DNA of 64,000 nt from the NCBI GenBank assembly GCA_030059675.1, contig JANVYQ010000005.1, forward strand, positions 1 through 64,000, given 5' to 3'. The stretch comes from Candidatus Pelearchaeum maunauluense (GTDB lineage: Archaea > Thermoproteota > Nitrososphaeria_A > Caldarchaeales > Caldarchaeaceae). Positions 9,917-40,063 of this stretch are shown here, one piece after another. A model generated the notes under the pieces. The model did not search any database. It was given only the letters and a program-made list of their open reading frames with translations, and had not been told where the DNA came from. Each line of letters starts with the position of its first letter. Position 1 is the first letter of the stretch. Both the position numbers and the translations under genes were made by a program.

Positions 9917-10639
9917 ATGCGCGCGGCTCCACTGCTTTCGGTAGAGAATGTGGTGAAGACATTCGGCGGCGTGAGAGCGCTGGATGGATGTAGCCTAACA
10001 ATCGAGAAGGGTGTATGTACTGGGATAATAGGGCCTAACGGCTCTGGGAAGACTACGCTGCTAAACGTTATAAATGGATTCCATAAGCCGGACAGCGGCA
10101 GGGTGTATCTCAACGGTAGGAGGATAGATAAGCTCCCACCAAGCACTATATGTAGGCTTGGGGTAGGCCGTGTCTTTCAGGTTACGAAGCTCTTTAACGG
10201 TATGACTGTTCTTGAGAATGTTATGGTGGAGGCTGTTTGGATGAAGAAGGATTTGGACGCGGTTAGGGAGAGGGCTCTGGAGTTGTTGAGGGATTTTGGG
10301 ATACCTCTTAGTCTGAAGGATGAGCTTGCTGGGAGGCTCTCTGGAGGCCAGCAGAAGTTGGTAGACCTAGCCCGCGCTCTCGTTGCTGACCCTGAGATAT
10401 TGTTGCTTGATGAGCCCCTGGCAGGTGTTCATGCGGCGATAAAGGAGAAGATTATGAAGATTGTTAATGAGCTGGTGCGCGGGGGGAAGACCTTGGTATT
10501 CGTTAGTCATGATATTCCCTCAATAATGAAGGTGGCTCAAGATGTTGTGTTTATGAGCGCGGGTAAAGTTCTCGTGAGGGGTAGGCCTGATGAGATTAGG
10601 TCGCATGAGGAGGTCATAACAGCTTATCTGGGTGTGTAG
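9917..10639 (+). CDS. livG: Branched-chain amino acid (HAAT) ABC importer ATPase, LivG-like
   Basis: FGGVRAL, GPNGSGKTT, LSGGQ, LLDEP. Confidence 0.88.
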   Translation: MRAAPLLSVENVVKTFGGVRALDGCSLTIEKGVCTGIIGPNGSGKTTLLNVINGFHKPDSGRVYLNGRRIDKLPPSTICRLGVGRVFQVTKLFNGMTVLENVMVEAVWMKKDLDAVRERALELLRDFGIPLSLKDELAGRLSGGQQKLVDLARALVADPEILLLDEPLAGVHAAIKEKIMKIVNELVRGGKTLVFVSHDIPSIMKVAQDVVFMSAGKVLVRGRPDEIRSHEEVITAYLGV

Positions 10640-10642
10640 CTC

Positions 10643-11395
10643 ATGTTGCTGGATGTTCGGGACATCTATGTGGAGTATCAGCGGGATATTGAGATTTTGA
10701 GGGGAGTGAGCATATCAGTCAGAGAGGGCTATGTATCCTCGGTAATAGGGCCTAACGGTGCTGGTAAATCAACTCTGCTGAAAACCGTAATGGGCATACT
10801 CAAGCCGAAACGTGGTTCTATAATCTTTGAGGGTAAGAAGATAGAGGGAAAGCAGCCGAATGAGCTCGTCAAGATGGGTCTAACATATGTTCCTCAAAGA
10901 CGAAGTATATTCCCCCAGCTTACGGTTAAGGAGAATCTTGAGATGGGTGCATGGACTCTGCGTAAGAATGAGGGTGAGGTCAGGAGGAGAATGCGTGAGG
11001 TCTTGGAGCTCTTTCCGTCTCTTTCCGAGAAGATAAACGAGAAGGCGGGGCTGCTCAGCGGCGGCCAGGCAAGGATGCTGGAAATAGCCCGCGCCCTAAT
11101 GACAAGCCCCAAGCTACTACTCCTAGACGAGCCTAGCTTCGGACTCTCGCCACTAATGACAAACAAGGTATACGAAACCATAACAGACCTCAAGAAGACT
11201 GGAATAACTATACTGCTTGTTGACCAGAACCTTGGTAAGTGTATGGCGTTGTCTGACTATGTGTATGTCATAGAGCTTGGCAGTGTTCGTGGGGGTGGTA
11301 AGCGTGATGAGATGCCTGCGGATGTTAAGGAGATTATACGCCGCTGGCTGGAGGCTGAAGAAGGCAGGGAAGTTGAGAGTTTAAGCGCTGACTAA
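10643..11395 (+). CDS. livF: HAAT ABC importer ATPase, LivF-like
   Basis: GPNGAGKST, LTVKENLEMGA, LSGGQ, LLDEPSFGLSP. Confidence 0.9.
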   Translation: MLLDVRDIYVEYQRDIEILRGVSISVREGYVSSVIGPNGAGKSTLLKTVMGILKPKRGSIIFEGKKIEGKQPNELVKMGLTYVPQRRSIFPQLTVKENLEMGAWTLRKNEGEVRRRMREVLELFPSLSEKINEKAGLLSGGQARMLEIARALMTSPKLLLLDEPSFGLSPLMTNKVYETITDLKKTGITILLVDQNLGKCMALSDYVYVIELGSVRGGGKRDEMPADVKEIIRRWLEAEEGREVESLSAD

Positions 11396-11418
11396 CATCT
11401 TGAGAGGTGCTGGGTTGA

Positions 11419-12327
11419 ATGGTATTAGAACAGTTCTCCCTCCTTGCTAAAAACTGGCTCTTCATACAAGTCCTGGTCGGCGGTCTACTGCTCGGCGGCG
11501 TATACGCGCTGGTCGCGGCAGGGTTTACCATGATATTCGGCGTGCTCAAGATACTGAACATAGCGCATGGAGAATTCGTGGTTCTCGGCTCATATGTGGC
11601 GTATTGGGTCTTCATACTCCTCGGCATAGACCCTATTTTGGCAATAGCCGTAACACTGCCAGCAGCCGCTCTCTATGGCTTCGCAACCTACTTCCTAGCA
11701 ATTGAGAGCGTATCAAGGAAGGGGATAGAACCAACGATAGTGGCGAGCTTCGGCGTCTTACTAATCCTACAATCCTCGATGCTGGCAGCATTCACAGGAG
11801 ACCCCCGAAGCATAGTAACAGAATTCACTGGCGAGAGCTTGGTTTTCGGGCCAGTTATAATGCCCTTAACCAAGGTGTTGGCATTTACGCTGGCTGTGGC
11901 AGCATTACTTGTTTTGAGTCTCTTTCTTAATAAGACGCAGATAGGAAAGGCGCTCAGGGCGGTCTCTCAAGATGCTGAAGCCAGTATGCTTATGGGGATA
12001 CCAGCGCGGGCTCTTCAGCGGCTGGGGTTTGTGATAGGCGCCATGCTTGCTGGGCTTACTGGGAACGTGATAGCCATGGTATCTAGCTTCACCCCCACAC
12101 TTGGGCCAGAGTTTCTCCTAAAGTCATTCGTCATACTAGCCATAGTCGGCATAGGAAATGTACGGGAGGTCGTTATAGGCGGGCTCTTACTCGGAACGGT
12201 GGAGGCCTTCGGCTCCTTCTTCCTAGGCGCGGGGATGAGGAACGTGGTAGCATACGGCCTGCTCATAATACTGCTACTAATCAAGCCCAGCGGGCTTTTC
12301 AGCAAGGCTGAACAGAGGGAGGTTTGA
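11419..12327 (+). CDS. livH: HAAT ABC importer permease, LivH-like
   Basis: G.YALVAAGFTMIFGV..ILNIAHGEF, GKALRAVSQD. Confidence 0.9.
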   Translation: MVLEQFSLLAKNWLFIQVLVGGLLLGGVYALVAAGFTMIFGVLKILNIAHGEFVVLGSYVAYWVFILLGIDPILAIAVTLPAAALYGFATYFLAIESVSRKGIEPTIVASFGVLLILQSSMLAAFTGDPRSIVTEFTGESLVFGPVIMPLTKVLAFTLAVAALLVLSLFLNKTQIGKALRAVSQDAEASMLMGIPARALQRLGFVIGAMLAGLTGNVIAMVSSFTPTLGPEFLLKSFVILAIVGIGNVREVVIGGLLLGTVEAFGSFFLGAGMRNVVAYGLLIILLLIKPSGLFSKAEQREV

Positions 12328-13241
12328 TGGCCAGCCTAAAGCCACTACCGATAATAGCTATAGCTATTCTAGCTCTAGTACCCCTAGCCCCTGTTGACGA
12401 CTTCCTAAAGAGCATGGTCTTTCTCTTCATGATTTACCTAGCATCCGCCTATGGGTGGAATATTATCGGTGGTTTTGCTGGCCAGATAAACCTGGGCCAT
12501 GCAGCGTTCTTCGGGATGGGAGCATACGTTATGGGCCAGTCTCTACTAGCTGGTCTTCATCCCTATGTTGCGGTGGCTGTAGGCGGCCTCGCCGGGCTGG
12601 GAACGGCGCTTATCATGAGCCCCCTCCTAAGACTACGCGGGGACTACTTCGCCATAGGCACGCTAGGCTTCACCGAAGCCCTCAAGATAGCACTAGTCAA
12701 CATACATGCATACGGCTACTCCTTCCCACCAGACCCAACCCTAACATTCACCGCAAACTACTACTATGCATTAGCAATATTCGTGGCAGTAGCTTTTCTA
12801 AACTACCTTATACTCACGTCCAAGCTTAGATTCGCATTCATATCTATACGCGAGAATGAGACCTTAGCTTCAGCCAGCGGAATTGGAATCTTCAAGTATA
12901 AGGTTCTGGCTCTCTGCTTAAGCGGTGTGATGGTTGGATTAATAGGCGGGATATACAGCTACAACCTACTATACGTACAGCCTGAGCATGTCTTCGGGAT
13001 GGAATGGACACTAATCCCACTCTTCATCGTACTAATAGGCGGACGCGGCACTATAATAGGCCCGATATTCGGGCTGATGATCTATCTAGGAACATACTAT
13101 GCGCTGGGATTCTTACTTCCTGAGATAAGCCTTCTACTATTCGGATTGATGGTGGTGCTGGTGATGAAATTTATGCCACAAGGACTGATTGAGCAGGTCT
13201 TCTATGGGAGGCTTAACATGAGACGCAGGCTAATAATCTAA
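12327..13241 (+). CDS. livM: HAAT ABC importer permease, LivM-like
   Basis: WNIIGGFAGQINLGHAAFFG, RLRGDYFAIGTL, IGGRGT..GP; TGATG overlap with livH. Confidence 0.9.
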   Translation: MASLKPLPIIAIAILALVPLAPVDDFLKSMVFLFMIYLASAYGWNIIGGFAGQINLGHAAFFGMGAYVMGQSLLAGLHPYVAVAVGGLAGLGTALIMSPLLRLRGDYFAIGTLGFTEALKIALVNIHAYGYSFPPDPTLTFTANYYYALAIFVAVAFLNYLILTSKLRFAFISIRENETLASASGIGIFKYKVLALCLSGVMVGLIGGIYSYNLLYVQPEHVFGMEWTLIPLFIVLIGGRGTIIGPIFGLMIYLGTYYALGFLLPEISLLLFGLMVVLVMKFMPQGLIEQVFYGRLNMRRRLII

Positions 13242-14798: not shown

Positions 14799-15875
14799 TT
14801 ACTTCTTCCTTTTCCTTTCGGGTCTTGTCCATACACCCATCTCAAACATCTTCTCAATCTGCTTCTCGATGACCTTCTCGCGATACTCTGCGTGTTTATA
14901 CGGCTTCTGCTCCAGCCAGAGATTCTTCGGGTATATGGGCCGTTCATAGATTAGCTGGATGATCTCGGTTCTAAGGTCTTTCATCCAGTTGGCCCAGGGA
15001 GACCTTGACCTAAAGTCCCTAAGGGCGTCTATGTCTATTACTGCGGCGCAGTATGATGAGCCAGCGCCGTACTCGTGTTTTCCTATAACCCTTCCCTTGT
15101 AATCAACTATCATGGACTTCCCGCCAAAGGTGTCTACTGGGACTGGTGAGTCTACTGTTAGGTAGTATGTTCCCGTGTTGGGTGCGATGATGTAGATGTT
15201 GTTGTCTAGGGCGCGTGCTCTGTTCTGCACCTCCCAGAACTCGTTCTGCGTGTGTGGATGGGGGTAGCTGGGCCTATACACGACCTCTGCGCCATTCATG
15301 GCTAGGCCCCGTATGTATTCTGGGTAGGAGCCCTCGTTAGCCAGCGCGCATCCAAGCTTGCCTATCTCGGTATCAACAACTGGGAAGAAAGCTTGCAGGT
15401 TCCTTCCATGAATCTTAACCCACTCATCAAAGATGTCGTGTGGGCATACCGAGTGCTCAACAGGGAAGAGGGGGGAGTTCTTGTAATGACGTAGGATTAT
15501 CTTGCCGCGCGGGTCTATTATGAAAGCGTTGTTGAAGAACCTGTTGGGGAATCTCTCGTCTCGCGCCTTCGCCTGGGCTATGACATAACAGCCGTACTGC
15601 TTGGCTATCTCTCCCAGCAGGTCTGTCTCTTCACCAGGTATGTCTATGGCGATTGTGTTAGCATACTCCTCGTGGTCCATATCAAATACTTCGTCTGTGA
15701 AGCCTTGGAGAGAGCCTTCGGGTATTGCTATTAGCTTCACGGGTAGGTCTAGGCTGCTGAGCCATGTGGCGGCTGCTACGAGCTCCCTAATGTGCTCTAT
15801 GTTCTTCTTAATCTCCTCGCGTTTCCTAACACCCCACACTGTTGGAGAGAGACCAACAGCCATGTAAGGCTCCAT
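14799..15875 (-). CDS. Carbon-nitrogen hydrolase (nitrilase superfamily) with Ala at the nucleophile position
   Basis: IPEG (Glu), HYK (Lys), GKLGCALANEGSYPE where ICYD..FPE is expected; RARALDN. Confidence 0.85.
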   Translation of the reverse strand: MEPYMAVGLSPTVWGVRKREEIKKNIEHIRELVAAATWLSSLDLPVKLIAIPEGSLQGFTDEVFDMDHEEYANTIAIDIPGEETDLLGEIAKQYGCYVIAQAKARDERFPNRFFNNAFIIDPRGKIILRHYKNSPLFPVEHSVCPHDIFDEWVKIHGRNLQAFFPVVDTEIGKLGCALANEGSYPEYIRGLAMNGAEVVYRPSYPHPHTQNEFWEVQNRARALDNNIYIIAPNTGTYYLTVDSPVPVDTFGGKSMIVDYKGRVIGKHEYGAGSSYCAAVIDIDALRDFRSRSPWANWMKDLRTEIIQLIYERPIYPKNLWLEQKPYKHAEYREKVIEKQIEKMFEMGVWTRPERKRKK

Positions 15876-15962: not shown

Positions 15963-17120
15963 ATGCACCTCACGTTAGGTGAGCATCATAAGAAGCTTCT
16001 TGAAGATGCTTCTAGACTGTCTGAGAGCTTCGGCTTGGACTATTGGCGTGAAGTATATGATGCGCATCGTTTTCCTGAGGAATATTGGTCTAGACTCTCT
16101 GCTTTGCGTTTTCCTGGAGTTATTCTAGACCATGGTTATGATGGGCTTGGGCTTGGTCTGGTGGAGCTTGTGCTGATAACTGAGAGGCTTGCCGCTGGAG
16201 GCGCTGGCCTAGGCTTATACGCCATGTTAAGCAACAACCTAGCAGGGCTTGTTATACAGCAGCATGGCAGCAATAGCGCGAAGGCTCTATTACCCCGCGT
16301 GGTTCGTGGTGAGCTACTGATAGGCTTGGCATTTACCGAAGAGGAGGCAGGCTCTGACGCGTTTGCGATAAAGACTACGGCAATAGAGAGGGGTGGGGGA
16401 TATGTTTTGCAAGGTGAGAAGATGTTTGTCAATAATGTGGGGAGGGCGACCCACTACTTGGTTATGGCTAGGACATCCCAGCCCGCTGGAGGAAGGCGGA
16501 GTCATGGTTTAACGCTCTTCCTAGTTGATTCAAATTCCAGCGGCATAAGCTACGCGCATCTAGGCAAGATGGGGCTAGACTATCTCAACACTGGAAGAAT
16601 GACCTTGGACAACGTCTATGTCGGTAGAGAGAGGGTTGTGGGTAATGTTGATGAGGGTTGGAAGGCTATAGTGAATGCTCTTAACGCTGACCGTATTGCT
16701 TACGCGGCGCTCGCGATAGGCGCTGGTAGACTAGCGCTCAATATTGCTGTGGATTATGCTAAGCGGCGTAGGGTCTTCGGCCGCGAGATAGGCGGCTACC
16801 AGGCCATACAATTCCCCCTAGCAGCATCCTACGCCGAGCTAGAAGCTGCATGGCTTCTTACGCTTAATGCTGCTATCAAATTTGATAGGGGAGAGAGCTG
16901 TGATGTTGATGCCTGCTTATGCAAATACCTGGCAACCGAGGCGGCGTTTAGGGCTGTGGAGCGCTCTATGCAGACCCTCGGCGGCCATGGATACCTAAAA
17001 GACTATCACGTGGAGCGGCTCTTTAGAGATGTGCTTCTCCTGAAGTCTAGCCCAATTACCCAAGAGCTGGCTTTGGCGTATGTGGCTCAGCGAGGCCTAG
17101 GCCTACCCCGTTCTTTCTAA
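15963..17120 (+). CDS. Acyl-CoA dehydrogenase family protein
   Basis: [42 protein letters not shown]. Confidence 0.92.
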   Translation: MHLTLGEHHKKLLEDASRLSESFGLDYWREVYDAHRFPEEYWSRLSALRFPGVILDHGYDGLGLGLVELVLITERLAAGGAGLGLYAMLSNNLAGLVIQQHGSNSAKALLPRVVRGELLIGLAFTEEEAGSDAFAIKTTAIERGGGYVLQGEKMFVNNVGRATHYLVMARTSQPAGGRRSHGLTLFLVDSNSSGISYAHLGKMGLDYLNTGRMTLDNVYVGRERVVGNVDEGWKAIVNALNADRIAYAALAIGAGRLALNIAVDYAKRRRVFGREIGGYQAIQFPLAASYAELEAAWLLTLNAAIKFDRGESCDVDACLCKYLATEAAFRAVERSMQTLGGHGYLKDYHVERLFRDVLLLKSSPITQELALAYVAQRGLGLPRSF

Positions 17121-18091
17121 AACTCAACCTCAACACCCACCCCACGCTCGCGAGCAATCCTATAAGCTTCCGAAGCTGTAAAAAGGTCTATGGCGGCAAA
17201 TCCAACAGATTTGAAGAGGGTAATCTCATCTCCGCTCTCTCTTATGCTCTTACCTCCCCTAACAACGGCGCTCAGCTCCATTATGTCTGATGTGCTTATT
17301 ATACCGTTGTTTATCGCATGTATTATGTCGCCAGCCTCTCTTATGACAAACTCCCTTAAGTCTGCCACAATTTTTGAGGCTCTCTTTATCGTCTCCTCAT
17401 CAAGCTCCCGCCTATTGGGCAAGACGCCTATGCTATTCACATGAGCTCCCCTGGAAATCCACTCTCCTGAGAGTACGGGCTTCTCAGAGTTCGTGGCTGT
17501 GATAACTATATCGCGCCCTTCAACAGCCTCCCTAGGCGAGTCGTGTGGCGTTGCCCTGATTCCCAGCTCACGCGAAGCACGCTCACAAAAGCGTTCGCGG
17601 TTAGCCTTGGTCGGGCTGAATACATGTACCTCCTCAATACCGCGCACAGCAAGCATGGCTTCTAGCTGGGCCCATGCTTGTATACCGCTCCCAATCAACC
17701 CCACGCTTGTGCTGTCTTCGCGCGCCATGTAGCGGGTTGCTACGCCGCTCATAGCGCCTGTTCTGGCTTCGGTTATATACACGGAGTCCATCAGAGCCAG
17801 CGGCAAGCCCCGCTCCAAGTCAAACAAAACAAGCATTCCGAAAGCCTTGGGGAGATTATACTTGGGATTGGCTAGATACTCGTTAATTATCTTAACAGTA
17901 ACTTTTGATTGCGCTGTTGAGTATGCTGGCATGAATAGCCATACAGCGCGTCTATCAGGCATTTGGACTACAACACGCTGGGGGGTTGTGTATTCGCTGG
18001 GGCTGAATGAGCGGAAGAAAGCCTCGGTAATCTCCACTACATTCTTCATGGGTAGGAGCTGTGCTAACGTTGTGCGGGAGAGAAGGAGCAT
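17117..18091 (-). CDS. Ornithine cyclodeaminase / mu-crystallin / archaeal alanine dehydrogenase family
   Basis: FMPAY, ITEARTGA, IGSGIQA, TLFKSVG. Confidence 0.9.
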   Translation of the reverse strand: MLLLSRTTLAQLLPMKNVVEITEAFFRSFSPSEYTTPQRVVVQMPDRRAVWLFMPAYSTAQSKVTVKIINEYLANPKYNLPKAFGMLVLFDLERGLPLALMDSVYITEARTGAMSGVATRYMAREDSTSVGLIGSGIQAWAQLEAMLAVRGIEEVHVFSPTKANRERFCERASRELGIRATPHDSPREAVEGRDIVITATNSEKPVLSGEWISRGAHVNSIGVLPNRRELDEETIKRASKIVADLREFVIREAGDIIHAINNGIISTSDIMELSAVVRGGKSIRESGDEITLFKSVGFAAIDLFTASEAYRIARERGVGVEVEF

Positions 18092-18098: not shown

Positions 18099-19430
18099 TC
18101 ACGCTCTATTGTCTATTATGCGCTTGGCCTTGCCAACCTCCTGGCGCGGCAGCGTCATAGGGTCAACAACCTCCACCTCTGGCTCCACCATCAGTATTTC
18201 ATGCAGCTCGCGGCGGAGTATCTGGGCCAGCCTGGCTTTCTCATCCCCGCCTACCTTATCCCTGGCCTCAACAACTATCTTCAGCTGGTCAAGCCCCTTC
18301 ACGCGGCTGACATGTATCTGATACTCCATCCCCAGCTCAGGATGCTTAAGTAGAGTGGTCTCAACCATACTAGGCCATATAGCCACTCCACGAACCTTAA
18401 TCATATCATCAATCCTCATCTTTATGGGCGCTATCCTAACATGCGTCCTCCCACAGTCGCATGATGTGCTGTCGTATATTCTTGAGAGGTCGCGCGAGCG
18501 GTACCTAATGAGAGGCGCCGCCTCTTTTGTGAGCGACGTAAATACCAGCTCCCCCTCCTCCTCAGGTTCTAGCTGCTCCCCAGTCTGGGGGTCTATAACT
18601 TCTACTATGAAATGGTCCTCCCAGACATGTAGCCCATCGTGTATTCTACAATCGTTTGCCACGCCTGGGCCGCATAGCTCGGTGAATCCATAGATGTCGT
18701 AGACATCCATGTCCCATACTTCTGAGATTCGGCGCTTCATCTCTTCCGTCCATGTCTCCGAGCCGAATACTCCTTTACGCACCCTAGTATCCTTGGCTGG
18801 GTCTATACCCATCTCCAGCGCGGTCTCGGTTAGTCTAAGCATATACGAGACGACGGCGCATACCATGGTGGTTCCGAAGTCCTGCATGAATTGTATCTGC
18901 CGCCTGCTGAAGCCAGCTCCAGAAGGGACTATAAGCGCCCCAACCTTACGCGCGCCGTGGTAGAATCCAAAACCACCCGTGAACATCCCGAAGCTTGGGG
19001 TTATCTGAAAGACATCCTCGCGCGAGAGTCCAGACATGACGAGAGACCTAGCTGAGACATCAGCCCATACCTCCAGGTCGTTCTCCGTGTATAGCCCAAG
19101 CGTGGGCGCTCCAGTAGTCCCAGATGTTGCGTGCATCTCCACCACCTCGCTCAGCGGAACGGCCAGCATACCAAATGGATAATGGTCGCGGAGGGTCTGC
19201 TTGGTGGTGAAGGGGAGACGCGCTATATCATCCAAGCTACGAATATCCTCTGGCTTAACCCCAAGCCTATCCATCTCCCGCCTATAGTATGCTACATTAT
19301 TATACACACGCGAGACTGTCTGACGTAGCCTTTTCAACTGAATCTCCGCTATATCCCTACGACTCATTCTCTCGGCTGTAGGATTGAAGTATCGCTCCAT
19401 ACCTGTCAAAACACCGCGCAAGCTAGACAA
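18099..19430 (-). CDS. paaK: Phenylacetate-CoA ligase family (aryl-CoA ligase)
   Basis: LPFTTK..LRDHYPFG, HATSGTTG, DIYGFTELCGPGV, PLIRYR, R.DDMIKVRGV. Confidence 0.88.
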   Translation of the reverse strand: MSSLRGVLTGMERYFNPTAERMSRRDIAEIQLKRLRQTVSRVYNNVAYYRREMDRLGVKPEDIRSLDDIARLPFTTKQTLRDHYPFGMLAVPLSEVVEMHATSGTTGAPTLGLYTENDLEVWADVSARSLVMSGLSREDVFQITPSFGMFTGGFGFYHGARKVGALIVPSGAGFSRRQIQFMQDFGTTMVCAVVSYMLRLTETALEMGIDPAKDTRVRKGVFGSETWTEEMKRRISEVWDMDVYDIYGFTELCGPGVANDCRIHDGLHVWEDHFIVEVIDPQTGEQLEPEEEGELVFTSLTKEAAPLIRYRSRDLSRIYDSTSCDCGRTHVRIAPIKMRIDDMIKVRGVAIWPSMVETTLLKHPELGMEYQIHVSRVKGLDQLKIVVEARDKVGGDEKARLAQILRRELHEILMVEPEVEVVDPMTLPRQEVGKAKRIIDNRA

Positions 19431-23742: not shown

Positions 23743-24162
23743 TTGAGCGATGAAATCATGCGTAAAAAAATTGTAGAGTTGGAAAACTCTTTGAGAATAG
23801 TAAGTGAAACAACTTCACTCTCTGTTAATGACTTTATGAGTGATATACGTAATATATACTCGCTGCGTATGGCAATTATAGAGTTTGTGGAAGCTGCTGC
23901 TAGCGTAGGCTTGGAACTGCTTAGGAGAAGGCTGAAAGTTTATGATATTGATGGTTATCCTCAGATATTTAGGAAGCTTGTTGAGCAGGGATTATTATCG
24001 GAGAATGTGGGAAGCGCTATGGTTAGCCTAGCCAAGCTTAGAAATCTCATAGTCCATAGATATTGGGAGGTTGATGACTTACGTATTTATCATGAGGCGC
24101 GTAAGAACGGATTAGAGAAGGCTAGGCGCTTCATAGAGGAGGTGAGGAACCTATACCCATAG
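23743..24162 (+). CDS. HepT-like (DUF86) HEPN RNase toxin
   Basis: RNLIVHRY (Rx4HxY) motif. Confidence 0.88.
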   Translation: MSDEIMRKKIVELENSLRIVSETTSLSVNDFMSDIRNIYSLRMAIIEFVEAAASVGLELLRRRLKVYDIDGYPQIFRKLVEQGLLSENVGSAMVSLAKLRNLIVHRYWEVDDLRIYHEARKNGLEKARRFIEEVRNLYP

Positions 24163-27722: not shown

Positions 27723-27726
27723 GGGG

Positions 27727-32399: not shown

Positions 32400-33800
32400 T
32401 TATGAGAGGAACTGCTTAGCCACCTCAGGCACCCACGGTAATTCTTTTTGCAGTTTTTCGAGTGATTTCTTGATTTCTTCTTCTGGGTAGTGCCATGGCT
32501 GTAGTCTTCCCGCTAGGTATTCTTCGTATGCCGTTAGGTCGAAGTGTCCATGTCCGCATAGGTTGAATAGTATCACCTTCTTCTCGCCTGTCTCCTTACA
32601 CCGCCGCGCCTCATCAATAACATATTTGATTGTATGTGATGGCTCTGGGCCTGGTAGGAATCCCTCAGTCCTGGCGAAGAGTACCGCCGCGTCAAACACA
32701 GATACCTGGTCATATGCTCTGGGCTCTATCTTACCCTCCTTCAGGAGGAGGCATAGGGTAGGCGCGTCTCCATGATACCTGAGCCCGCCAGCATGTATTG
32801 GTGGTGGCACGAAGTCTGAGCCCAGTGTATGCATGGGCAGTAGTGGGGTCATCTTAGCCGTGTCGCCGAAGTCGTAGGTGTAGATGCCCTTCGTCATGGT
32901 AGGACACGCGGTAGGCTCTGTAGCTACGAACTTCACATCTTTTGGCGCTTTCTTAGCAACTACATCATAGTAGAAGGGCCAGAATAGCCCTGAGAAGCTA
33001 CTCCCACCTCCTACACATCCAGCAACAACATCTGGATACTCATCAACCATCTCAAGCTGTTTCTTAGCCTCAAGCCCCTGGACGGTCTGGTGCATGAGAA
33101 CATGATTAAGCACGCTCCCTAGGCTGTAGCGCGTGTTATCATGCGTAACCGTATCCTCAAGGGCTTCGCTTATCGCTATCCCCAGGCTGCCTGGGTGGTT
33201 GGGGTCTTTCTGAAGCAGGCTCCTCCCAAAGTTTGTTTTATCGCTTGGGCTTGGGACGACCTCCGCGCCCCACGCGTGCATGAGTATCCTCCTAGCTGGC
33301 TTCTGGTTGTAGCTTATGCGCACCATATAGACGGAGCATTTTATCCCGAATAGGTTGCAGGCGAATGACAACGCGCTACCCCACTGGCCAGCGCCTGTCT
33401 CTGTTGTTAGACGCTCAATCCCCTGCTTAGCGTTATAGTATGCCTGCGCAACAGCTGTGTTAGGCTTGTGAGAACCAGGTGGGGATACGCCCTCCCACTT
33501 ATAGTATATACGCGCAGGCGTGTTGAGAGCCTTCTCTAGGCGCTCAGCCCTTATCAGTGGTGTTGGCCTCCAAATCCTATACACATCCCTAACTTCGTTA
33601 GGTATTGGTATCCACCTATCAGGGCTCAGCTCCTGCTTAATCAGCTCCTTAGCGAATATCCTCTCAAGCTTAGCAGGGTCTACAGGCTGTTTTGTTGATG
33701 GGTCTATTGGTGGTGCGAGAGGCTTAGGTAGGTCTGGCAGAATATTATACCATTCTTTCGGAATATCGTTTTCGTCTAGCGTAATTATTTTTCCTGGCAT
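32400..33800 (-). CDS. trpB2: Tryptophan synthase beta-2 (TrpB2, stand-alone)
   Basis: [51 protein letters not shown]; start at MPGK. Confidence 0.95.
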
Positions 33801-33898
33801 GCAGAAAAACACGCCGAGTATAGGCCTTATAAACTTTTTGGAAAACGCCGTGAAAGGCTCATGAATAACGTAAGTTTTCTTCATAACTTGAATGGGGT

Positions 33899-35068
33899 AT
33901 GAACTTTAGTGAGGATGAGGATGTCCAACTCCTTAGGAGAACTATTGCTGAGTTTATGAAAGGATTTCCAGCTGAGTACTGGAGACGGCATGACTCTCTC
34001 CGCGAGTTCCCCCGCGATTTCTGGGATGCTGCCGCCAGAAACGGCTTGCTGGGCATCACGATACCTGAAGAATATGGCGGCGCTGGCCTCGGCATGTACG
34101 CTGCCGCTGTGGCGATGAACGAGGTAGCCCGTAATGGTGGAGGCCTAGCCGCTGGAGACCTACTAATGAGAACCCTGGTATTCGGGGGGCTTCTAATAAA
34201 CAAACACGCATCGCGGGAAGCTAAGGAGAAATACTTACCAAAGTTGGCTGAAGGTAAGATAATCTGCGCCTTCGCCCACACCGAGCCAAACGCTGGTGTG
34301 AATACATTTGATATTCAGACCAAAGCCGTTAAGAAAGATGGGGGCTTTGTAGTAAATGGTCAGAAGATATGGATAACCCTGGCACATATGGCTGACCTTA
34401 TTATAGGTGTTGTGCGCACAACACCTAAGGATAAGGTACAGAGGAAATCTCATGGAATTAGCCTGCTCTTGATAGATGCTAAGCAGCCAGGGGTTAAGAC
34501 CTCGCGAATTCCAGGCATGGCGCTCAGAGCCCTTCCCAGCAATCAGGTCTATTTTGAGGATGTCTGGGTTCCTGAGGAGAATGTGGTGGGCGAGGTGGAT
34601 AGGGGCTGGGAGACGCTTACTGTGTTGCTGAATGCTGAGCGTATATCCACTGCTTCCATCTCGCTGGGATGCGGTGAGTACGCTCTACAGAGAGCGGTTG
34701 AATACGCGTCTAACAGGCTTGTCTTCGGCCGCCCGATAGGGAGCAACCAAGCTATACAGTTTCCCCTGGCTGAGGCTAAGGCTGAGCTTGAGGTGGCTAA
34801 GCTGATGACCCTTAAGGCTGCATGGCTCCATGACCAAGGGCTAGATTGCGCCGTTGAGGCTAACATCGCCGCTCTCCAAGCAGCACGGGCAGCGTTCAAG
34901 GCCGCCGACAGGGCAGTACAGACATTCGGCGGCATGGGATTCGCAGAAGAAAACGACATAGAACGCGTATTCAGGGATGTTAGACTTTTCAGAACAGCCC
35001 CAGTCCCAGAGGAGATGGTCCTCAACTTCATAGCCACGCGCGCCCTCGGGCTTCCACGCTCATTCTAA
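33899..35068 (+). CDS. Acyl-CoA dehydrogenase family protein
   Basis: [45 protein letters not shown]. Confidence 0.93.
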
Positions 35069-35108
35069 GCCCTACAAACCTCTATTAATCGCGAAAAGAG
35101 AGTAGAGC

Positions 35109-37517
35109 ATGGTGCGTTTCTTGTCCTCAGCTTCGCAGTGGATTGGAAAGCCTCTAAAGACCAAGGAGGGGATACGGCACGTCCGCGGGCTTGGGAGGTT
35201 CGTTGAGGATATAATCCTGCCTAAGATGGCTTATGCGGCTCTTGTGAGAAGCCCATACGCTCACGCAAGGATAAAATCCATAGATATATCGCGTGCGGTC
35301 AAGGCGCCTGGAGTAATAGCCGTAATAACGGGTAGGGATATAGCGAGCATAACCCAGCCGTTCCCCCAGCTCACCACACCGCCAGCTTCAAATGTGAAGG
35401 ACTATAGCATGGCGGTCAATAAGGTCAGATACGTAGGAGAGCCGGTAGCTGCGGTAGTAGCCGAGTCGCGCTACGCCGCCGCTGACGCGGCGGAGCTGGT
35501 GGACGTGGAGTATGAGCTACTGCCCGTCGTAGTTGACCCAGAGGAGGCGCTTAAGGAGGATGCCCCAATACTGCATGAGGAGGCTGGCACAAACATAGCT
35601 GCCGTCGTTGATTATGATTATGGCGACTATGACGAGGCTGAGGCCTCAGCTGACAGGATAATAAGAGCAAACCTCCGTTATCATAGGTTTAGCTCAACGC
35701 CGCTGGAGCCCTTCGCAGTGCTGGCAGATTATAACAAGACGGAAGACTCCTACACGATTTACTGCAATAACCAGATGCCGATGTTCCTAATTCCCTCCAT
35801 ACTGAGAGCGCTTAATACAGGACTTGACAAGATACGCATAATAACGCAGGATATAGGCGGTGGTTTTGGTGTTAAGATTCTCAGCTACCCGTACATGGTT
35901 CTGGCTGCTGCCCTCTCCAAGCTTGTTGGCAGGCCTGTCAAGTGGGTTGAGACACGCCGCGAGCATATGATGGCCAGCTCGCATGGCGCTGACCGCCTCT
36001 TCAGGGTTGAGGCAGCGATAAAGAACGATGGAACACTACTAGGCCTGAAAACCGAGACCATAGACGATATAGGAGCATACGCCAGGCACGAGCCAGCGGG
36101 ATTAACTGTTTGGGCTCAAGTGGCCTCAGGATGCTGCCGCTTCAAACACCTACGCCAAAGGATGTATGCTGTATTCACCAACAAATGCCCAGCAGGCCCT
36201 AACAGGGGATTCGCGCGTGCGCCTCACCAATACATGATTGAACGAGTCTTAGATATGATTGCGCGTGAGGTGGGTAGGGACCCTGTTGAGGTGAGGTTAA
36301 TCAACTATGTTAAGCGTGAGGAGCAGCCATATACTACGCTTAATGGATGTGTGTATGATGACGGCGACTACATAGGTGCTGTACAGCGTGTTATGGAGCT
36401 ACTAGACTATTGGGGCTGGCGCAGGAGGCAGGAGGAGCTGCGTAAAGAGGGGAGACTAATTGGCATCGGGATAGCTACGACCCTAGACTCTGGAACTGCT
36501 AACTTCGGGCAGGTGAGGATGCTAAACCCAAGGCTGCCCAACGTTGGGACAAGCGAGGCGGCCTCGGTGCAGATGACAGGCGACGGCCGTGTAGTGGTGA
36601 AGCTAGGCTCCGTCCCCCAGGGCCAGTCGCATGAGACGGTTTCAGCGCAGATAGTTGCGGATGTCCTAGGAATGAACCCAGACCACGTTACTGTCGCTAT
36701 AGGCTTTGACTCCGAGTCCCATCCCTACACATTCCATTCAGGAACCTACGCCAGTAGGTTTGCCGGGACTGGGATGGTGGCTGTCTACGAAGCGGCTATG
36801 AAGCTCAGGGAGAAGATAAAGAAGATAGCAGCCCACCTATTGGAGGCGCGTGAGGAGGATATAGAGCTGGCTAATGAGCAAGCATTCGTGAAAGACGCTC
36901 CTGAGAGGAGCGTATCGTTTAGGAGGATAGCCCGCACAGCCTATGCGAACCCATACGAGCTCCCAGAGGGCATGGAGGCAGGCTTGTATAGCTTGAGCGT
37001 CTTCAGCCCACCCTTCAAACCACCCGACGAGAAGAAGGTTGGAAACCTAACTCTCACCTACTCATACCAGACGCATGGCATCGTGGTTGAGATTGACCCC
37101 GAAACAGGGAAGCCAAAGATACTTGATTATGTTATCGTAGACGACTGTGGGCGTGTGATTAATCCGCTGGTAGTTGATGGGCAGATACATGGAGCAGCTC
37201 TTCACGGGCTTGCTGCTGTTCTCTATGAGTCGTTTGACTATGATAGCACAGGCCAGCTTCTCACATCAACCTTCATGGACTATCTAGCCCCAACAGCGTT
37301 TGACACACCCAGCTTCAAAACCGAAAGAATATCTATACCATCTCCATTCACACCGCTGGGTGCTAAGGGAGTTGGCGAAGGATGCGGAACGCCCATACCA
37401 GCGCTAATTAACGCAATAGAAGACGCCCTCTCACCCTATAATGTACGCCTAACGAACTCCCATATAAAACCAGAAGAAATCTATTGGATAATCCGAAAAT
37501 TCAAACACCACACCTAA
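35109..37517 (+). CDS. Xanthine dehydrogenase family molybdopterin large subunit (heteroaromatic hydroxylase-like clade)
   Basis: IGGGFGVK, GPNRGFA, PQGQSHET, SGTYASRFA, GAKGVGEG. Confidence 0.92.
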   Translation: MVRFLSSASQWIGKPLKTKEGIRHVRGLGRFVEDIILPKMAYAALVRSPYAHARIKSIDISRAVKAPGVIAVITGRDIASITQPFPQLTTPPASNVKDYSMAVNKVRYVGEPVAAVVAESRYAAADAAELVDVEYELLPVVVDPEEALKEDAPILHEEAGTNIAAVVDYDYGDYDEAEASADRIIRANLRYHRFSSTPLEPFAVLADYNKTEDSYTIYCNNQMPMFLIPSILRALNTGLDKIRIITQDIGGGFGVKILSYPYMVLAAALSKLVGRPVKWVETRREHMMASSHGADRLFRVEAAIKNDGTLLGLKTETIDDIGAYARHEPAGLTVWAQVASGCCRFKHLRQRMYAVFTNKCPAGPNRGFARAPHQYMIERVLDMIAREVGRDPVEVRLINYVKREEQPYTTLNGCVYDDGDYIGAVQRVMELLDYWGWRRRQEELRKEGRLIGIGIATTLDSGTANFGQVRMLNPRLPNVGTSEAASVQMTGDGRVVVKLGSVPQGQSHETVSAQIVADVLGMNPDHVTVAIGFDSESHPYTFHSGTYASRFAGTGMVAVYEAAMKLREKIKKIAAHLLEAREEDIELANEQAFVKDAPERSVSFRRIARTAYANPYELPEGMEAGLYSLSVFSPPFKPPDEKKVGNLTLTYSYQTHGIVVEIDPETGKPKILDYVIVDDCGRVINPLVVDGQIHGAALHGLAAVLYESFDYDSTGQLLTSTFMDYLAPTAFDTPSFKTERISIPSPFTPLGAKGVGEGCGTPIPALINAIEDALSPYNVRLTNSHIKPEEIYWIIRKFKHHT

Positions 37518-37597
37518 TTAATTATGACTACTTGATTTGAAGGAACTTAGCTGTTGTTTTAAGGTTTATTATATAATCAACGCGGTATAAAATTTGT

Positions 37598-38794
37598 ATG
37601 AGCGGTTTTAGAGGTATTGCGGCAATATCTGGATATGCGGAAACCCCATTCAGTAGGGCGCGTGTTGATAAAGGGGAGCCGCGTCTAACCGCTGAGGAAT
37701 ACTATGCTTGGGCTCTTGAGCTTCTTCTAAAACAGACGGGGCTTGAGAAGAAGGACCTTACAGGCCAGGGTGTTGGGATTATAGGCTCGGAGTGGCCGCA
37801 TAGTGAGATATGGTCTGCGGAGGCTATTCAAAACCTGGGCTTAGAGCCTAAGCTCCTAGTGCGCGCAGACCACGGCGGCGCTAACGCCGCTGCGTTGCTG
37901 GTTCAGGGTGTCTTAGCAATACAAGCAGGCTACGTGGAGCATTTCCTCATGCTGGGCGCCGACACACCTCTCTCAATAACGGGCCCAGCATCAAGAACAT
38001 GGCGCTATGATGAGAACTATCTCAAGCCATTTGGAACTATGGGGCCTAACAGCTTGATAGCCATGGCTATGCGCCGCTACATGAATGACTATGGTGCAAA
38101 ACCTGAGCATTTCGGGACTGTTTCAGTAGTGCAGAGAAAACACGCGACGCTTAATCCCAACGCGTATCTAAAGACTCCGCTCACCATGGAGGACTATCTC
38201 AACTCCCGTCTAATCTCAGACCCCCTCAGGCTCTTGGATATATGCATATGGGTTAATGGTGGGTTTGCTATACTCCTCTCCTCAGCCAGCGCCGCGAAGA
38301 GAATTACCGACAAGCCCGTGAGTATTCTGGGATTCGGAGAGTGGCATAACCCAAACGCTGGCCAGCCTATGCATGATATAACCACGACAGGCGTTAAGAT
38401 TGCAGCGGAGCAGGCGTATAAGATGTCTGGAATCACCCCGCGTGATGTATCTCTCTTCCAGCCCTACGACGACTATACCGTGGCTGTCCTAATGCAGATA
38501 GAGGATGCTGGGTTCTGCAAGAAGGGCGAGGCGGGTAGATTCCTAGAGGAGAACGACATAAGCTACCAAGGCCAGCTCCCCGTAAACACTGGCGGAGGCC
38601 AGCTCTCGGCAGGCCAGGCAGGAATGGCGGGAGGTTTTCTCCATTTCGTAGAAGCTGCCAGACAGCTAAGAGGCGAAGCAGGCCAGAGACAGGTTAAGGA
38701 TGCCCGAATAGGATTGGTTACGAGCCTCGGCTGCGTCGGTTTTGAAGGTCATTTCATAAATAACTACGCGGTCGTTCTTGGAGGTGAGGTGTAG
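37598..38794 (+). CDS. Thiolase-fold protein (SCP2/Ltp2-like) lacking the catalytic Cys
   Basis: NPNA, SRLISDPL.LLD, QPYDDY, GFCKKGE, NTGGGQLS, EAARQLRGEAG.RQV. Confidence 0.88.
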   Translation: MSGFRGIAAISGYAETPFSRARVDKGEPRLTAEEYYAWALELLLKQTGLEKKDLTGQGVGIIGSEWPHSEIWSAEAIQNLGLEPKLLVRADHGGANAAALLVQGVLAIQAGYVEHFLMLGADTPLSITGPASRTWRYDENYLKPFGTMGPNSLIAMAMRRYMNDYGAKPEHFGTVSVVQRKHATLNPNAYLKTPLTMEDYLNSRLISDPLRLLDICIWVNGGFAILLSSASAAKRITDKPVSILGFGEWHNPNAGQPMHDITTTGVKIAAEQAYKMSGITPRDVSLFQPYDDYTVAVLMQIEDAGFCKKGEAGRFLEENDISYQGQLPVNTGGGQLSAGQAGMAGGFLHFVEAARQLRGEAGQRQVKDARIGLVTSLGCVGFEGHFINNYAVVLGGEV

Positions 38795-39211
38795 ATGAGC
38801 AGCTATCCGAAGCCTCTTCCAGAGGTTACGCCGCTCACCAAGCCGTTCTGGGAAGCCAGCAAGAGAGGCGAGCTGCTCTTACAGCGCTGCAAAAACTGCT
38901 CCACATACATCTGGTATCCCCGCCACATATGCATAAACTGCGGCTCACGCGAGCTTGAGTGGGTTAAGGCATCAGGCAAGGGAAAGGTCTATTCATACAC
39001 CATAGTCAGACAGGTTATAGGAAACTCCCCAGAATTCTCAAAAGAAATACCATTCGTCGTAGCTGAGATAGAGCTAGACGAAGGCGCGCGAATATGCAGC
39101 AACATAGTAGGCGTTAAGCCTGAGGACGTAAGCATAGGAATGCCTGTTGAGGTCTTCTTTGAGGAATGCACACCAGAGATATCCCTGCCGAAATTCAAGC
39201 CAGCAAGGTAG
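38795..39211 (+). CDS. DUF35 Zn-ribbon/OB-fold partner protein
   Basis: PFW, QRCKNC...YPR.ICINC, SGKGKVYSYT. Confidence 0.92.
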   Translation: MSSYPKPLPEVTPLTKPFWEASKRGELLLQRCKNCSTYIWYPRHICINCGSRELEWVKASGKGKVYSYTIVRQVIGNSPEFSKEIPFVVAEIELDEGARICSNIVGVKPEDVSIGMPVEVFFEECTPEISLPKFKPAR

Positions 39212-39265
39212 CTGGCCTATGAGTGGGGAATCTATATTAAGACAGCTAATGGAGTTATTCTACGC

Positions 39266-40063
39266 ATGAGCCAATACAAGCATCTTTTATATGAGAAGGT
39301 TGAAGATGCCAAAACCGCCATAATCACCTTCAACAGGCCTGAAGCGCGCAACGCCATGAATGTGGCTATGCTCACAGAGTTTTACGACGCTCTCAAAGCA
39401 TCGGCGGAAGACCCTAATGTGTGGTGTATAATAGTAACGGGGGCGGGGGATAAGGCTTTCTGCTCAGGGGGCGATGCCAAGGAGTTCCTAGCTAATGTAG
39501 AGGCTGGGAAGATATCTGAGATAGAGCGCTTCAACAGATTCAACCTTGATGTTTGGCGTTTCATGGAGAAGATGCGGAAGCCGATAATAGCGGCGGTAAA
39601 TGGGTTCTGCAATATAGAGACAATACAGGCGGTTGACTTGGTGGTAGCCAGCCAGAACGCAAAATTCGGCCTTCCAGAGGTATCAATAGGCGTGAGTCCT
39701 GGGGCGGGTATAACTGTACGGATGCCCCGTTTCCTCAGCAAATACTGGGCTAAGTATCTGCTCTTCACTGGAGAATGGATAACGGCTGAGGAGGCGTATA
39801 GGCTAGGCTTCGTGAATAAAGTCGTGCCCCATGAGAAGCTTATGGAGGAAGCCCTAAACCTAGCTAGGAAGATAGTCAAGAACGCCCCACTCGCGGTAGG
39901 CGCTACCAAGGCCTGCGTAAACCTCGGCGGCGAGATGCCGATAGACGAGGGAATGGAGTACCAGCTTAAGGAGTCAATCTTAATGTTCCACACCAAAGAC
40001 CTGAAAGAAGGAATAAAAGCTCGCTTCTACGAAAAACGAGAACCAGTATTCAAAGGCGAATAA
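39266..40063 (+). CDS. Enoyl-CoA hydratase/crotonase family protein, atypical oxyanion loop
   Basis: FNRPEARNAM, FCSGGD, KPIIAAVNGFCNIE, LPEVSIG.SPGAG. Confidence 0.88.
   Translation: MSQYKHLLYEKVEDAKTAIITFNRPEARNAMNVAMLTEFYDALKASAEDPNVWCIIVTGAGDKAFCSGGDAKEFLANVEAGKISEIERFNRFNLDVWRFMEKMRKPIIAAVNGFCNIETIQAVDLVVASQNAKFGLPEVSIGVSPGAGITVRMPRFLSKYWAKYLLFTGEWITAEEAYRLGFVNKVVPHEKLMEEALNLARKIVKNAPLAVGATKACVNLGGEMPIDEGMEYQLKESILMFHTKDLKEGIKARFYEKREPVFKGE

Follow-up and report, generated by a model that had tools for sequence, protein, structure and literature searches.

A conserved, apparently catabolic gene core with a NaaA-like aminohydrolase and molybdenum-hydroxylase subunits in a modular 30-kb region of Candidatus Pelearchaeum maunauluense

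Does a dense run of catabolic genes in an uncultured hot-spring archaeon of the Caldarchaeales, the former Aigarchaeota, encode one undescribed pathway, or have separately inherited gene sets come to lie side by side? The run occupies positions 9902-40063 of a 64,000-nucleotide stretch of Candidatus Pelearchaeum maunauluense (contig JANVYQ010000005.1, positions 1 to 64,000; hereafter the window), which belongs to an assembly of 1.79 Mb in 21 contigs that is 94% complete. A sequence-only reading had taken 9917-40063 as one 30-kb unit for the O2-independent degradation of a heterocycle, possibly related to indole or tryptophan. We called genes as open reading frames (ORFs) and assigned families with Pfam and NCBIfam models; every gene family named in that reading was found again among the 25 proteins of the interval (Table 1), of which the TrpB-like protein alone passed an NCBIfam equivalog cut-off (NF009057, 719 bits, cut-off 366). 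We lean towards the explanation that, at the level of the genus, at least five modules with separate inheritance have come to lie next to each other, and that they hold a conserved core for degrading a (hetero)aromatic acid or amide that carries an amino group or other nitrogen. These modules would be A, a CN-hydrolase with a HAAT importer; B1, ACAD-OCD-PaaK; B2, FAH-IPMS-like-E1-alpha (IPMS, isopropylmalate synthase); C, cyclase/SDR/ECH/M20-XDH1-XDH2; and D, TrpB2 next to ACAD-XDH3-thiolase-DUF35-ECH.

In the window, LivG-F-H-M (+) are followed by the abutting genes for the CN-hydrolase and then the binding protein (-), and by ACAD1 (+). FAH, IPMS-like, E1-alpha, PaaK and OCD form a minus-strand run whose genes are 2 to 64 nt apart; the middle consists of cyclase, HepT and SDR (+), ECH1 (-) and M20, XDH1 and XDH2 (+), and the end of TrpB2 (-) with ACAD2, XDH3, thiolase, DUF35 and ECH2 (+). 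We searched 40 relatives (labelled G) with four marker proteins, fetched 34 stretches and mapped the cluster proteins onto them by tblastn. In G006, a single contig, ACAD1, OCD-PaaK and FAH-IPMS-like-E1-alpha lie near 250 kb, SDR-M20-XDH1 near 538 kb, and TrpB2 with ACAD2-XDH3-thiolase-DUF35 near 1300 kb, and a search at E at most 1e-30 gave no CN-hydrolase there. The same dispersal was seen for the modules fetched in G003, G011 and G013 (not every module was fetched in each), with two modules of G003 about 250 kb apart on one contig and a third on another. G002 has the CN-hydrolase-LivGFHM and binding-protein unit next to PaaK-OCD, and FAH-IPMS-like-E1-alpha, SDR-M20-XDH1 and ACAD2-XDH3-thiolase-DUF35 on three other contigs. 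One contig of G004 carries cyclase-SDR-M20, ECH1 and, further on, XDH1, and another carries XDH2, FAH-E1-alpha, ACAD1 and OCD-PaaK; G027, from another family, has M20-XDH1-XDH2, and ACAD2-XDH3-thiolase beside OCD- and ACAD1-like genes. Because the modules are dispersed even within the family, the 30 kb are not one conserved unit, and the earlier claim of such a unit was not borne out.

Smaller groups recur. SDR-M20-XDH1 is contiguous in 6 of 7 relatives examined, and the ACAD2-XDH3-thiolase-DUF35-ECH2 operon is kept in G001, G002, G003, G004, G006, G013 and G027, with TrpB2 as divergent neighbour of ACAD2-XDH3 in G006, G003 and G013. The ACAD1-OCD-PaaK trio is conserved in Caldarchaeales loci, the CN-hydrolase-LivGFHM and binding-protein unit occurs also in G002, G010, G011 and G012, and XDH2 follows M20-XDH1 in G027 and in the loci L115, L124, L125 and L142. 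Orthologues of M20, the CN-hydrolase and XDH3 are present in 16, 7 and 18 of the 40 relatives, respectively. In G001, of the same genus, the cluster proteins are 93-99% identical and the genes lie on three contigs (C137, C141 and C23; L015/L016/L017); compared with the window, two neighbouring segments, about 13.3-25.5 kb and 25.5-32.4 kb, are inverted, and their ends coincide with module borders. No long repeats of note were seen at the inversion borders, and either assembly could be wrong here.

Which genes stay together over greater distances was read from 160 loci (labelled L), 80 from a genome-collection scan with the IPMS-like protein and 80 from metagenomes that were scanned with five aligned M20 orthologues (one of the latter 80 without an M20 match passing the filter). 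The nearest relatives of the IPMS-like protein in the collection were from Candidatus Pelearchaeum (95% identity), Candidatus Caldarchaeum and 'Archaeon HR01', and FAH-IPMS-like-E1-alpha stand side by side in 13 loci of Caldarchaeales, 9 of them with ACAD1 and OCD-PaaK as well. In L066, L067 and L069, whose titles read Nitrososphaerales, Thaumarchaeota or Bathyarchaeia, genes for an XDH3-like protein (53%), IPMS-like (61%), ECH on the minus strand (42%), M20 (60%) and an XDH1-like protein (55%) follow one another in a row. Oligopeptide-ABC ATPase genes flank the row in L067, an FmdA/AmdA amidase gene occurs in L067 and L069, and the edges carry a proline-racemase-family gene (L067) or Amidohydro_2 and GNAT genes (L069). 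L076 combines IPMS-like, ECH, SDR (65%) and FAH (55%). These Nitrososphaerales-type loci came from the collection scans only; in a phylum-wide sample of 401 genomes, the M20 orthologue was present in just 18, all Caldarchaeales.

Among the metagenome loci, the company of M20 changes with its identity to the window copy. At 70% or more (13 loci), XDH1 is present in 11, SDR in 7 and XDH2 in 5; at 55-69% (10 loci), cyclase is found in 7, ECH in 4, XDH1, IPMS-like and SDR in 3 each, and XDH3-like and FAH in 2 each; below 55% (56 loci), the counts are 34 for FAH, 12 for IPMS-like, 9 for XDH3-like and 2 for the CN-hydrolase, or 19, 9 and 6 for the first three among the 21 loci of at least 9 kb. L131/L132 hold eight window genes (XDH3-like, IPMS-like, minus-strand ECH, M20, XDH1-like, cyclase, SDR and FAH) within about 15 kb that also contain Fer2_2, CoxG and FAD-subunit genes, and L127 has cyclase, IPMS-like, ECH, M20 and XDH1 together with a HAAT transporter. 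Cyclase homologues adjoin M20 at 50-61% identity in L127-L129 and L131-L134 and at 78% in L117 and L119, the divergent ECH(-)/M20(+) arrangement recurs in L066, L067, L069, L127, L131 and L132, and L140/L141 carry a CN-hydrolase 59-62% identical to the window copy beside FAH-M20-HMGL-like. Four high-GC contigs (L186, L154, L168 and L153) share genes for a luciferase-like protein, M20, FAH, M24, IPMS-like, a ketopantoate-reductase-like protein and a second M24 (M24 being of creatinase/prolidase type), then CoxM, CoxS and an XDH3-like large (L) subunit; the order in L186/L154 is CoxM, L, luciferase-like, M20, FAH, M24, IPMS-like, CoxM, CoxS. These contigs, which bear no taxon label, look bacterial because of their 70-72% GC. 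Many high-GC contigs thus carry a reduced version of the cluster, with M20, FAH, IPMS-like and CoxLMS.

No orthologue-level PaaK, OCD, ACAD1, ACAD2, thiolase, DUF35, ECH2, TrpB2 or E1-alpha gene lies beside the core in the 160 loci, and TrpB2 had no match in them at all. The PaaK/OCD/ACAD, E1-alpha, ACAD/thiolase/DUF35 and TrpB2 parts are linked within Caldarchaeales only. Weak, non-adjacent matches were a PaaK-like (26%, L117) and a thiolase-like protein (41%, L110); an E1-alpha-like match (42%) lies about 6 kb from M20 in L129, and a 59% E1-alpha is found on L049. The last is a 2.7-kb contig titled 'uncultured Elusimicrobia' that has IPMS-like and E1-alpha genes and a 286-aa gene, the 286-aa gene being 99% identical to G006; apart from its title it matches Caldarchaeum, from which it probably derives, having been placed in a bacterial metagenome-assembled genome by binning.

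The genuinely conserved core consists of the NaaA-like M20, XDH1, XDH3, FAH, IPMS-like, ECH1, SDR and cyclase; weaker links attach the CN-hydrolase and the HAAT importer to it. It is a conserved and apparently undescribed set of catabolic genes that centres on Mo-hydroxylases and on hydrolases of amides and amines, and we found no description of an M20/Mo-hydroxylase cluster in the accessible portions of the literature on CoxL and related dehydrogenases of Aigarchaeota and Caldarchaeum. The earlier idea of an undescribed catabolic set with Mo-hydroxylases survives for this subset, whose members are conserved and co-occur also outside the order. Likewise, of the genes for which neighbourhood conservation had been proposed as a check, M20, FAH, cyclase, SDR and XDH proved linked far beyond the order, whereas the nitrilase-family CN-hydrolase did so in 2 loci only.

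The closest relative of the M20 protein points to the kind of chemistry involved. Over residues 9-415 it aligns with the 5-nitroanthranilate aminohydrolase NaaA (5k8m) at 226.6 bits (E 4.6e-66; about 40% identity in the printed alignment), against at most 57 bits for every other solved M20, ArgE/DapE included; matches to LysK/ArgE NCBIfam models are weak, and [LysW]-lysine hydrolase and ArgE/DapE score about 50 bits. Its GMGVFNMKG and GEIE segments align with GYSVVNCKG and GEID of NaaA, and N125 is invariant across 5 orthologues. We take the Asn of GxGxxNxKG to occupy the bridging-Asp position of the canonical dinuclear M20 site, and GEIx to replace the adjacent Glu-Glu. By similarity and by these departures in the site, M20 would belong to a NaaA-like aminohydrolase subfamily, NaaA being by far the closest match. 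We know of NaaA only from the nitroaromatic pathway. In the available text of two papers, and by its PDB entry name, NaaA removes an aromatic amino group hydrolytically (PMC10306065, PMC11903332), and the 5-nitroanthranilate pathway of Bradyrhizobium sp. JS329 is outlined as NaaA aminohydrolase, ring cleavage and maleylpyruvate hydrolysis (PMC10306065). The set described here resembles that pathway in its full-length NaaA homologue and in an FAH-family gene as commonest neighbour in the more distant M20 loci, but 5-nitrosalicylate dioxygenase and lactonase are absent here, and Mo-hydroxylases, an IPMS-like enzyme and a crotonase stand in their place. Since identity to NaaA is only about 40%, the substrate is probably different.

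All three Mo-hydroxylase large subunits, XDH1, XDH2 and XDH3, carry Ald_Xan_dh_C, MoCoBD_1 and MoCoBD_2 (Pfam, E 1e-19 to 1e-87). Nearest solved chains were quinoline 2-oxidoreductase L (QorL, 588 bits), CoxL and KdhL for XDH1, 4-hydroxybenzoyl-CoA reductase alpha (1rm6_A, 433 bits) for XDH2, and CoxL and Qor for XDH3; the best NCBIfam model of XDH1 was glyceraldehyde dehydrogenase alpha, at 719 bits under a cut-off of 790. When XDH1-3 were searched by regular expression, neither an AYxCSFR-type loop nor one of the AYRGAGR type, the form II CoxL motif, came up. The active-site loop of form I CoxL of aerobic CO dehydrogenase is given as VAYRCSFR in the accessible part of PMC4681859, where Aigarchaeota CoxL homologues are likewise reported to be without the CO-dehydrogenase loop; XDH1-3 agree with those homologues in this respect. 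In a tree of 12 L paralogues from the same genome and 10 L subunits from related loci (IQ-TREE quick search, SH-aLRT support), one clade joins XDH1, the XDH1 orthologue of G006 and the second L of L131/L067; another joins XDH3, the XDH3 orthologue of G006, the first L of L131/L067 and the L of L186/L143. Both have SH-aLRT 100. Each clade excludes the other 10 own paralogues in the tree, and XDH2 falls in a separate, 4-hydroxybenzoyl-CoA-reductase-like branch. The topology supports orthology of XDH1 and XDH3 to the cluster-borne L subunits of distant loci.

How would such subunits pass on electrons? FeS or FAD partners of XDH1-3 are absent from the 64-kb window. The genome totals 13 XDH-family L genes (one split), 5 [2Fe-2S] small (S) and 5 FAD medium (M) subunit genes; four L genes have S/M neighbours of their own, and nine, XDH1-3 included, do not. 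A stand-alone CoxM-CoxS-CoxG set lies on contig C9 (G000, 120969-122886; L196), which has no L gene, and its products are 47%, 60% and 37% identical, respectively, to their L131 counterparts. The C9 copy is the sole CoxG homologue found in the genome. CoxS/CoxM partners would act in trans, and C9, with its likeness to the L131 set, would be the most economical source of them. The 13:5 excess of L over S may operate through shared electron-transfer subunits. An AAA-type ATPase gene adjoins the C9 set.

Related arrangements occur elsewhere in the genome. C17:92-12099 (L195) carries M20 and luciferase-like genes next to XDH-L and CoA-transferase A/B and, further along, a second orphan E1-alpha next to LivF/G; C16:8534-15547 (L197) carries a HAAT permease, LivG, LivF, XDH-L, Amidohydro_1 and a luciferase-like gene. 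In all, the genome has four places where a luciferase-like gene and an XDH-L paralogue are neighbours. The C16 and C17 modules suggest a family of 'importer + hydrolase + orphan L' modules.

The importer of the window has the two ATPases, two BPD_transp_2 permeases and Peripla_BP_6 binding protein of a HAAT system (Pfam), and its LivG/F/H/M genes are separated by gaps of 3 and 23 nt and then a 4-nt overlap. Among NCBIfam models, those for LivG/F/H/M and for urea (Urt) come nearest to the Liv proteins, every score being under its cut-off, so that these models assign no substrate. The nearest structures of the CN-hydrolase are weak matches to aliphatic amidase/formamidase (about 55 bits), and the PaaK-type ligase reaches about 456 bits on PaaK models with cut-offs of 646-700. 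What had been called a DRE-TIM lyase appears instead to be of the synthase type: with HMGL-like and HCS_D2 domains, it scores 400-406 bits on its best NCBIfam models, IPMS and homocitrate synthase (cut-offs 485-517), and its nearest solved structures are homocitrate synthase, then isopropylmalate synthases. It is 44% identical to the housekeeping LeuA (55466-57112) and, unlike it, has no LeuA_dimer regulatory domain. FAH is nearest to unnamed FAH-family, HpaG/HpcE-type, diketo-deoxy-rhamnonate and maleylpyruvate hydrolases, with 2,4-didehydro-3-deoxy-L-rhamnonate hydrolase as best NCBIfam model (below cut-off), and the nearest solved chain of the cyclase is the uncharacterised 5ibz, its similarity to characterised enzymes being weak.

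The E1-alpha gene of the window has no adjoining E1-beta gene. The 94% complete genome has 4 E1-alpha genes and 2 with Transket_pyr, both beside other copies, so that the window copy and one on C17 are without a beta neighbour. In Caldarchaeum loci a 286-aa gene (L021:10723-11583, with homologues in L036-L048) overlaps the end of E1-alpha by 4 nt; read by eye, its DGTHR motif is presumably ParB-like. This gene was considered as a hidden E1-beta and rejected, being ParB-like, without a Pfam match and with a homologue here on C11.

Import followed by mainly hydrolytic and dehydrogenative breakdown is the simplest reading of the core, because it joins three kinds of enzyme: putative hydroxylases that would add water-derived oxygen next to a ring nitrogen; predicted amide/amine hydrolases (NaaA-like M20, cyclase and CN-hydrolase here, FmdA/AmdA or M24 elsewhere); and an SDR, FAH, DRE-TIM enzyme and crotonase that may act on 2-oxo acids, 2,4-dioxo acids and acyl-CoAs. 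The compound taken up would be a (hetero)aromatic carboxylate, or its amide, that contains nitrogen and probably bears an amino substituent; the CN-hydrolase would hydrolyse the amide, and the Qor/CoxL-type large subunits would insert water-derived hydroxyl groups, with electrons leaving through CoxS/CoxM encoded elsewhere, for which the stand-alone C9 set would be available. The NaaA-like M20 could then remove the ring amino group hydrolytically, an oxo group made by the Mo-hydroxylases perhaps taking the activating role that the nitro group has in NaaA. A lactam or amide would next be opened by the cyclase-family hydrolase, and SDR, FAH, the IPMS-like enzyme and crotonase might turn the resulting oxo-acid into units of pyruvate or acyl-CoA. 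Modules with the CoA ligase and with genes of beta-oxidation type would be lineage-specific additions. More speculatively, we raise the possibility of an undescribed pathway, shared by Caldarchaeales, Nitrososphaerales-named loci and many high-GC contigs, that degrades an amino-N-heteroaromatic (or similar) carboxylate mostly without oxygenases, with two Qor/CoxL hydroxylases, a NaaA-type M20 acting by metal-assisted aromatic substitution, FAH and the IPMS-like enzyme working on the skeleton and, in this genome, one CoxM-CoxS-CoxG module serving many orphan L subunits.

Several points weigh against the modular reading and the chemistry attached to it. The mechanistic steps are drawn from sequence alone, from which a substrate cannot be named; at the identity noted above, M20 could differ from NaaA in its chemistry, and among the proteins only the TrpB-like one reaches equivalog level. 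The glyceraldehyde dehydrogenase score of XDH1 and the resemblance of FAH and SDR to sugar-acid enzymes pull in another direction, and the luciferase-like genes in the high-GC versions leave room for O2 use. The relatives are not independent of one another, the distant archaeal loci may represent one lineage or a transfer, the L-subunit tree rests on a quick search, and outside the order the CN-hydrolase is linked to the core in 2 loci and the HAAT importer in 1.

Other explanations have to be set against the same observations. That all of the about 25 genes serve one pathway for a single heterocycle, for example derived from indole or tryptophan, through Mo hydroxylation, CoA activation, hydrolytic ring opening and beta-oxidation, is plausible as chemistry; the genes are contiguous here and in G001, and modules pair variously elsewhere (CN-hydrolase-Liv with PaaK-OCD in G002, XDH2 with FAH-E1-alpha-ACAD1-OCD-PaaK in G004, OCD and ACAD1-like genes with ACAD2-XDH3 in G027). 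We nevertheless consider it unlikely: hundreds of kb separate the modules in G006, and in G003, G002, G011 and G013 they are on different contigs or far from each other on one contig; the PaaK, OCD, ACAD, thiolase/DUF35, TrpB2 and E1-alpha orthologues are never beside the core in the 160 distant loci, the interval includes a HepT toxin gene, the two inversions within the genus fall at module borders, and nothing ties the cyclase strongly to isatin hydrolase or KynB. The earlier hint at indole or tryptophan compounds found no support either, with TrpB2 outside the wider conserved set and the cyclase only weakly similar to solved, characterised enzymes. Quite improbable, in our estimate, is a pile-up of paralogues in which unrelated amino-acid and fatty-acid catabolic neighbours share no pathway. 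The genome is indeed rich in paralogues (13 XDH-L genes, many LivG/F pairs, 4 E1-alpha genes) and the modules are inherited separately, yet orthologous M20, XDH1, XDH3, IPMS-like, FAH, ECH, SDR and cyclase genes co-localise in another archaeal order, and the same set is partly co-localised on many high-GC contigs.

A route for aldehydes or sugar acids would instead make XDH1 and XDH3 enzymes of the glyceraldehyde oxidoreductase type, with SDR and FAH working as they do in non-phosphorylative routes for sugar acids, where oxidation of a 4-hydroxy-2-oxo acid gives a 2,4-dioxo acid, and hydrolysis of the latter gives pyruvate and an acid. The best NCBIfam models of XDH1 and FAH fit it, as do a solved L-2,4-diketo-3-deoxyrhamnonate hydrolase among the PDB neighbours of FAH and the DHDPS-family and PfkB kinase genes divergent from SDR-M20-XDH1 in G006; but all these scores are under cut-off, the DHDPS/PfkB adjacency is limited to G006 and its close relatives L004 and L118 (here the pair is on C2), and both the NaaA-like M20, translationally coupled to XDH1, and the cyclase, CN-hydrolase, FmdA/AmdA amidase and M24 of related clusters would go unexplained, which leaves this route doubtful. 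An Entner-Doudoroff link of SDR-M20-XDH1 through DHDPS/PfkB was rejected as a general feature, being seen in G006, L004 and L118 only. Least credible, and in our judgement very improbable, is a biosynthetic role in which a homocitrate-synthase-like enzyme and an M20 deacylase act as in LysW-type lysine/arginine synthesis. It would draw on homocitrate synthase as nearest solved structure of the IPMS-like protein, on the weak matches of M20 to LysK/ArgE models and on the nearby LeuC (40786) and LeuD (44725); M20, however, scores 226 bits to NaaA against about 50 to ArgE/DapE and [LysW]-lysine hydrolase, LysW/X/Y/Z/J genes did not turn up, the links to Mo-hydroxylases, FAH and amidases are catabolic in character, and LeuC/D are grouped with IlvB, IlvC and LeuA.

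The modular reading with its conserved core also has to be placed beside known systems. N-heterocycle routes with Mo-hydroxylases (Qor, KdhL, nicotinate, isonicotinate) proceed by hydroxylation, then amide hydrolysis and CoA chemistry, and the kinship of XDH1 to QorL and KdhL and of XDH3 to CoxL and QorL recalls them; no protein here matches their enzymes at equivalog level, and the L subunits are without adjoining S/M. To our knowledge, NaaA-like M20, FAH and IPMS-like proteins are not among their enzymes. Aerobic CO dehydrogenase (CoxLMS) shares the family and domain set, and CoxM/CoxS/CoxG homologues occur in the genome and in L131, but XDH1-3 are without its VAYRCSFR loop. Archaeal beta-oxidation sets resemble 33899-40063 in ACAD, crotonase and SCP-x-type thiolase with DUF35; here an XDH-family L lies inside the operon, which has no 3-hydroxyacyl-CoA dehydrogenase. 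No equivalog-level match was obtained to Hmf (furoate), Nic (nicotinate) or Iaa (indoleacetate) enzymes, not all of which NCBIfam may model, and the genes did not all map to any one known pathway at that level. Caldarchaeales have many 'CoxL-like' genes, whose function is left open or guessed as CO oxidation in the accessible text of PMC4681859 and PMC10547907. Here XDH1 and XDH3 are tied by orthology and gene linkage to an enzyme set headed by a NaaA-like aminohydrolase; the linkage to M20 offers concrete, testable substrate candidates, and it suggests that NaaA belongs to a widespread natural family.

In line with the earlier reading, no oxygenase domain was found by Pfam inside 9902-40063; a luciferase-like monooxygenase-family gene lies 7 kb downstream of the interval, at 47460-48542. 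The wider claim of O2-independence is unsupported, luciferase-like genes being present in the high-GC versions of the core and beside XDH-L paralogues of the genome itself. The gene at 47460-48542 was ruled out as an orthologue of those on the high-GC contigs (identity just 23-27%).

Table 1 Features of the interval and its upstream border, in window coordinates
Feature	Position	Strand	Basis
Intron-bearing tRNA	about 9454-9616	-	ARAGORN intron mode only
tRNA-Thr(GGU)	9676-9752	-	ARAGORN default, Rfam
LivG, LivF, LivH, LivM importer operon	9902-13241	+	Pfam, NCBIfam
HAAT substrate-binding protein, 504 aa	13284-14798	-	Pfam
CN_hydrolase, amidase-like	14799-15875	-	Pfam
ACAD1 acyl-CoA dehydrogenase	15963-17120	+	Pfam
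OCD/mu-crystallin	17117-18091	-	Pfam
PaaK-type aryl-acetate-CoA ligase	18099-19430	-	Pfam, NCBIfam
E1-alpha, orphan	19495-20556	-	Pfam
IPMS/homocitrate-synthase-like DRE-TIM enzyme (HMGL-like + HCS_D2)	20581-21801	-	Pfam, NCBIfam
FAH	21804-22787	-	Pfam
Cyclase-family (PF04199) metal-dependent amidohydrolase	22882-23685	+	Pfam
HepT-like RNase toxin gene	23743-24162	+	Pfam, NCBIfam
SDR	24635-25477	+	Pfam
Crotonase ECH1, divergent from M20	25494-26282	-	Pfam
NaaA-like M20 aminohydrolase	26424-27722	+	structure-sequence similarity
XDH1, Mo-hydroxylase large subunit; 14-nt overlap with M20	27709-30057	+	Pfam
XDH2, Mo-hydroxylase large subunit, 4-hydroxybenzoyl-CoA-reductase-like	30100-32370	+	Pfam, NCBIfam
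TrpB2-type PLP enzyme	32400-33884	-	NCBIfam
ACAD2 acyl-CoA dehydrogenase	33899-35068	+	Pfam
XDH3, CoxL-like Mo-hydroxylase large subunit	35109-37517	+	Pfam
SCP-x-type thiolase + DUF35 (OB/zinc-ribbon) pair	37598-39211	+	Pfam
Crotonase ECH2	39266-40063	+	Pfam

Of the two tRNA genes reported at the upstream border, tRNA-Thr was the only one recovered by default ARAGORN and by Rfam; the other, missed by both, appeared in ARAGORN's intron mode, typed as tRNA-His(atg) with an 80-nt intron, an anticodon call that looks unreliable. By eye, its anticodon loop resembles Leu(GAG), followed by a canonical intron. The HepT-like gene is outside the catabolic set. Its product scores 66.8 bits in Pfam and 59.1 bits on NCBIfam HepT_toxin (cut-off 60), no nucleotidyltransferase partner lies upstream, and downstream there is only an 82-aa ORF without annotation (24318-24566); a separate NTP_transf_2/HEPN pair is found at 3622-4336. 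Directly downstream of the interval, branched-chain amino-acid biosynthesis genes (LeuC, LeuD, IlvC, IlvB and LeuA) occupy 40786-57112, broken up by genes for an HTH_10 regulator, a hemerythrin, an Amidohydro_2 protein and the luciferase-like protein. Within this stretch, 48000-54000 includes an NrfD-family gene split in two ORFs (48865-49272 and 49307-50173) and ORFs without a Pfam match; its GC content is 0.39-0.41, against about 0.50 in the rest of the window, and it may be foreign DNA.

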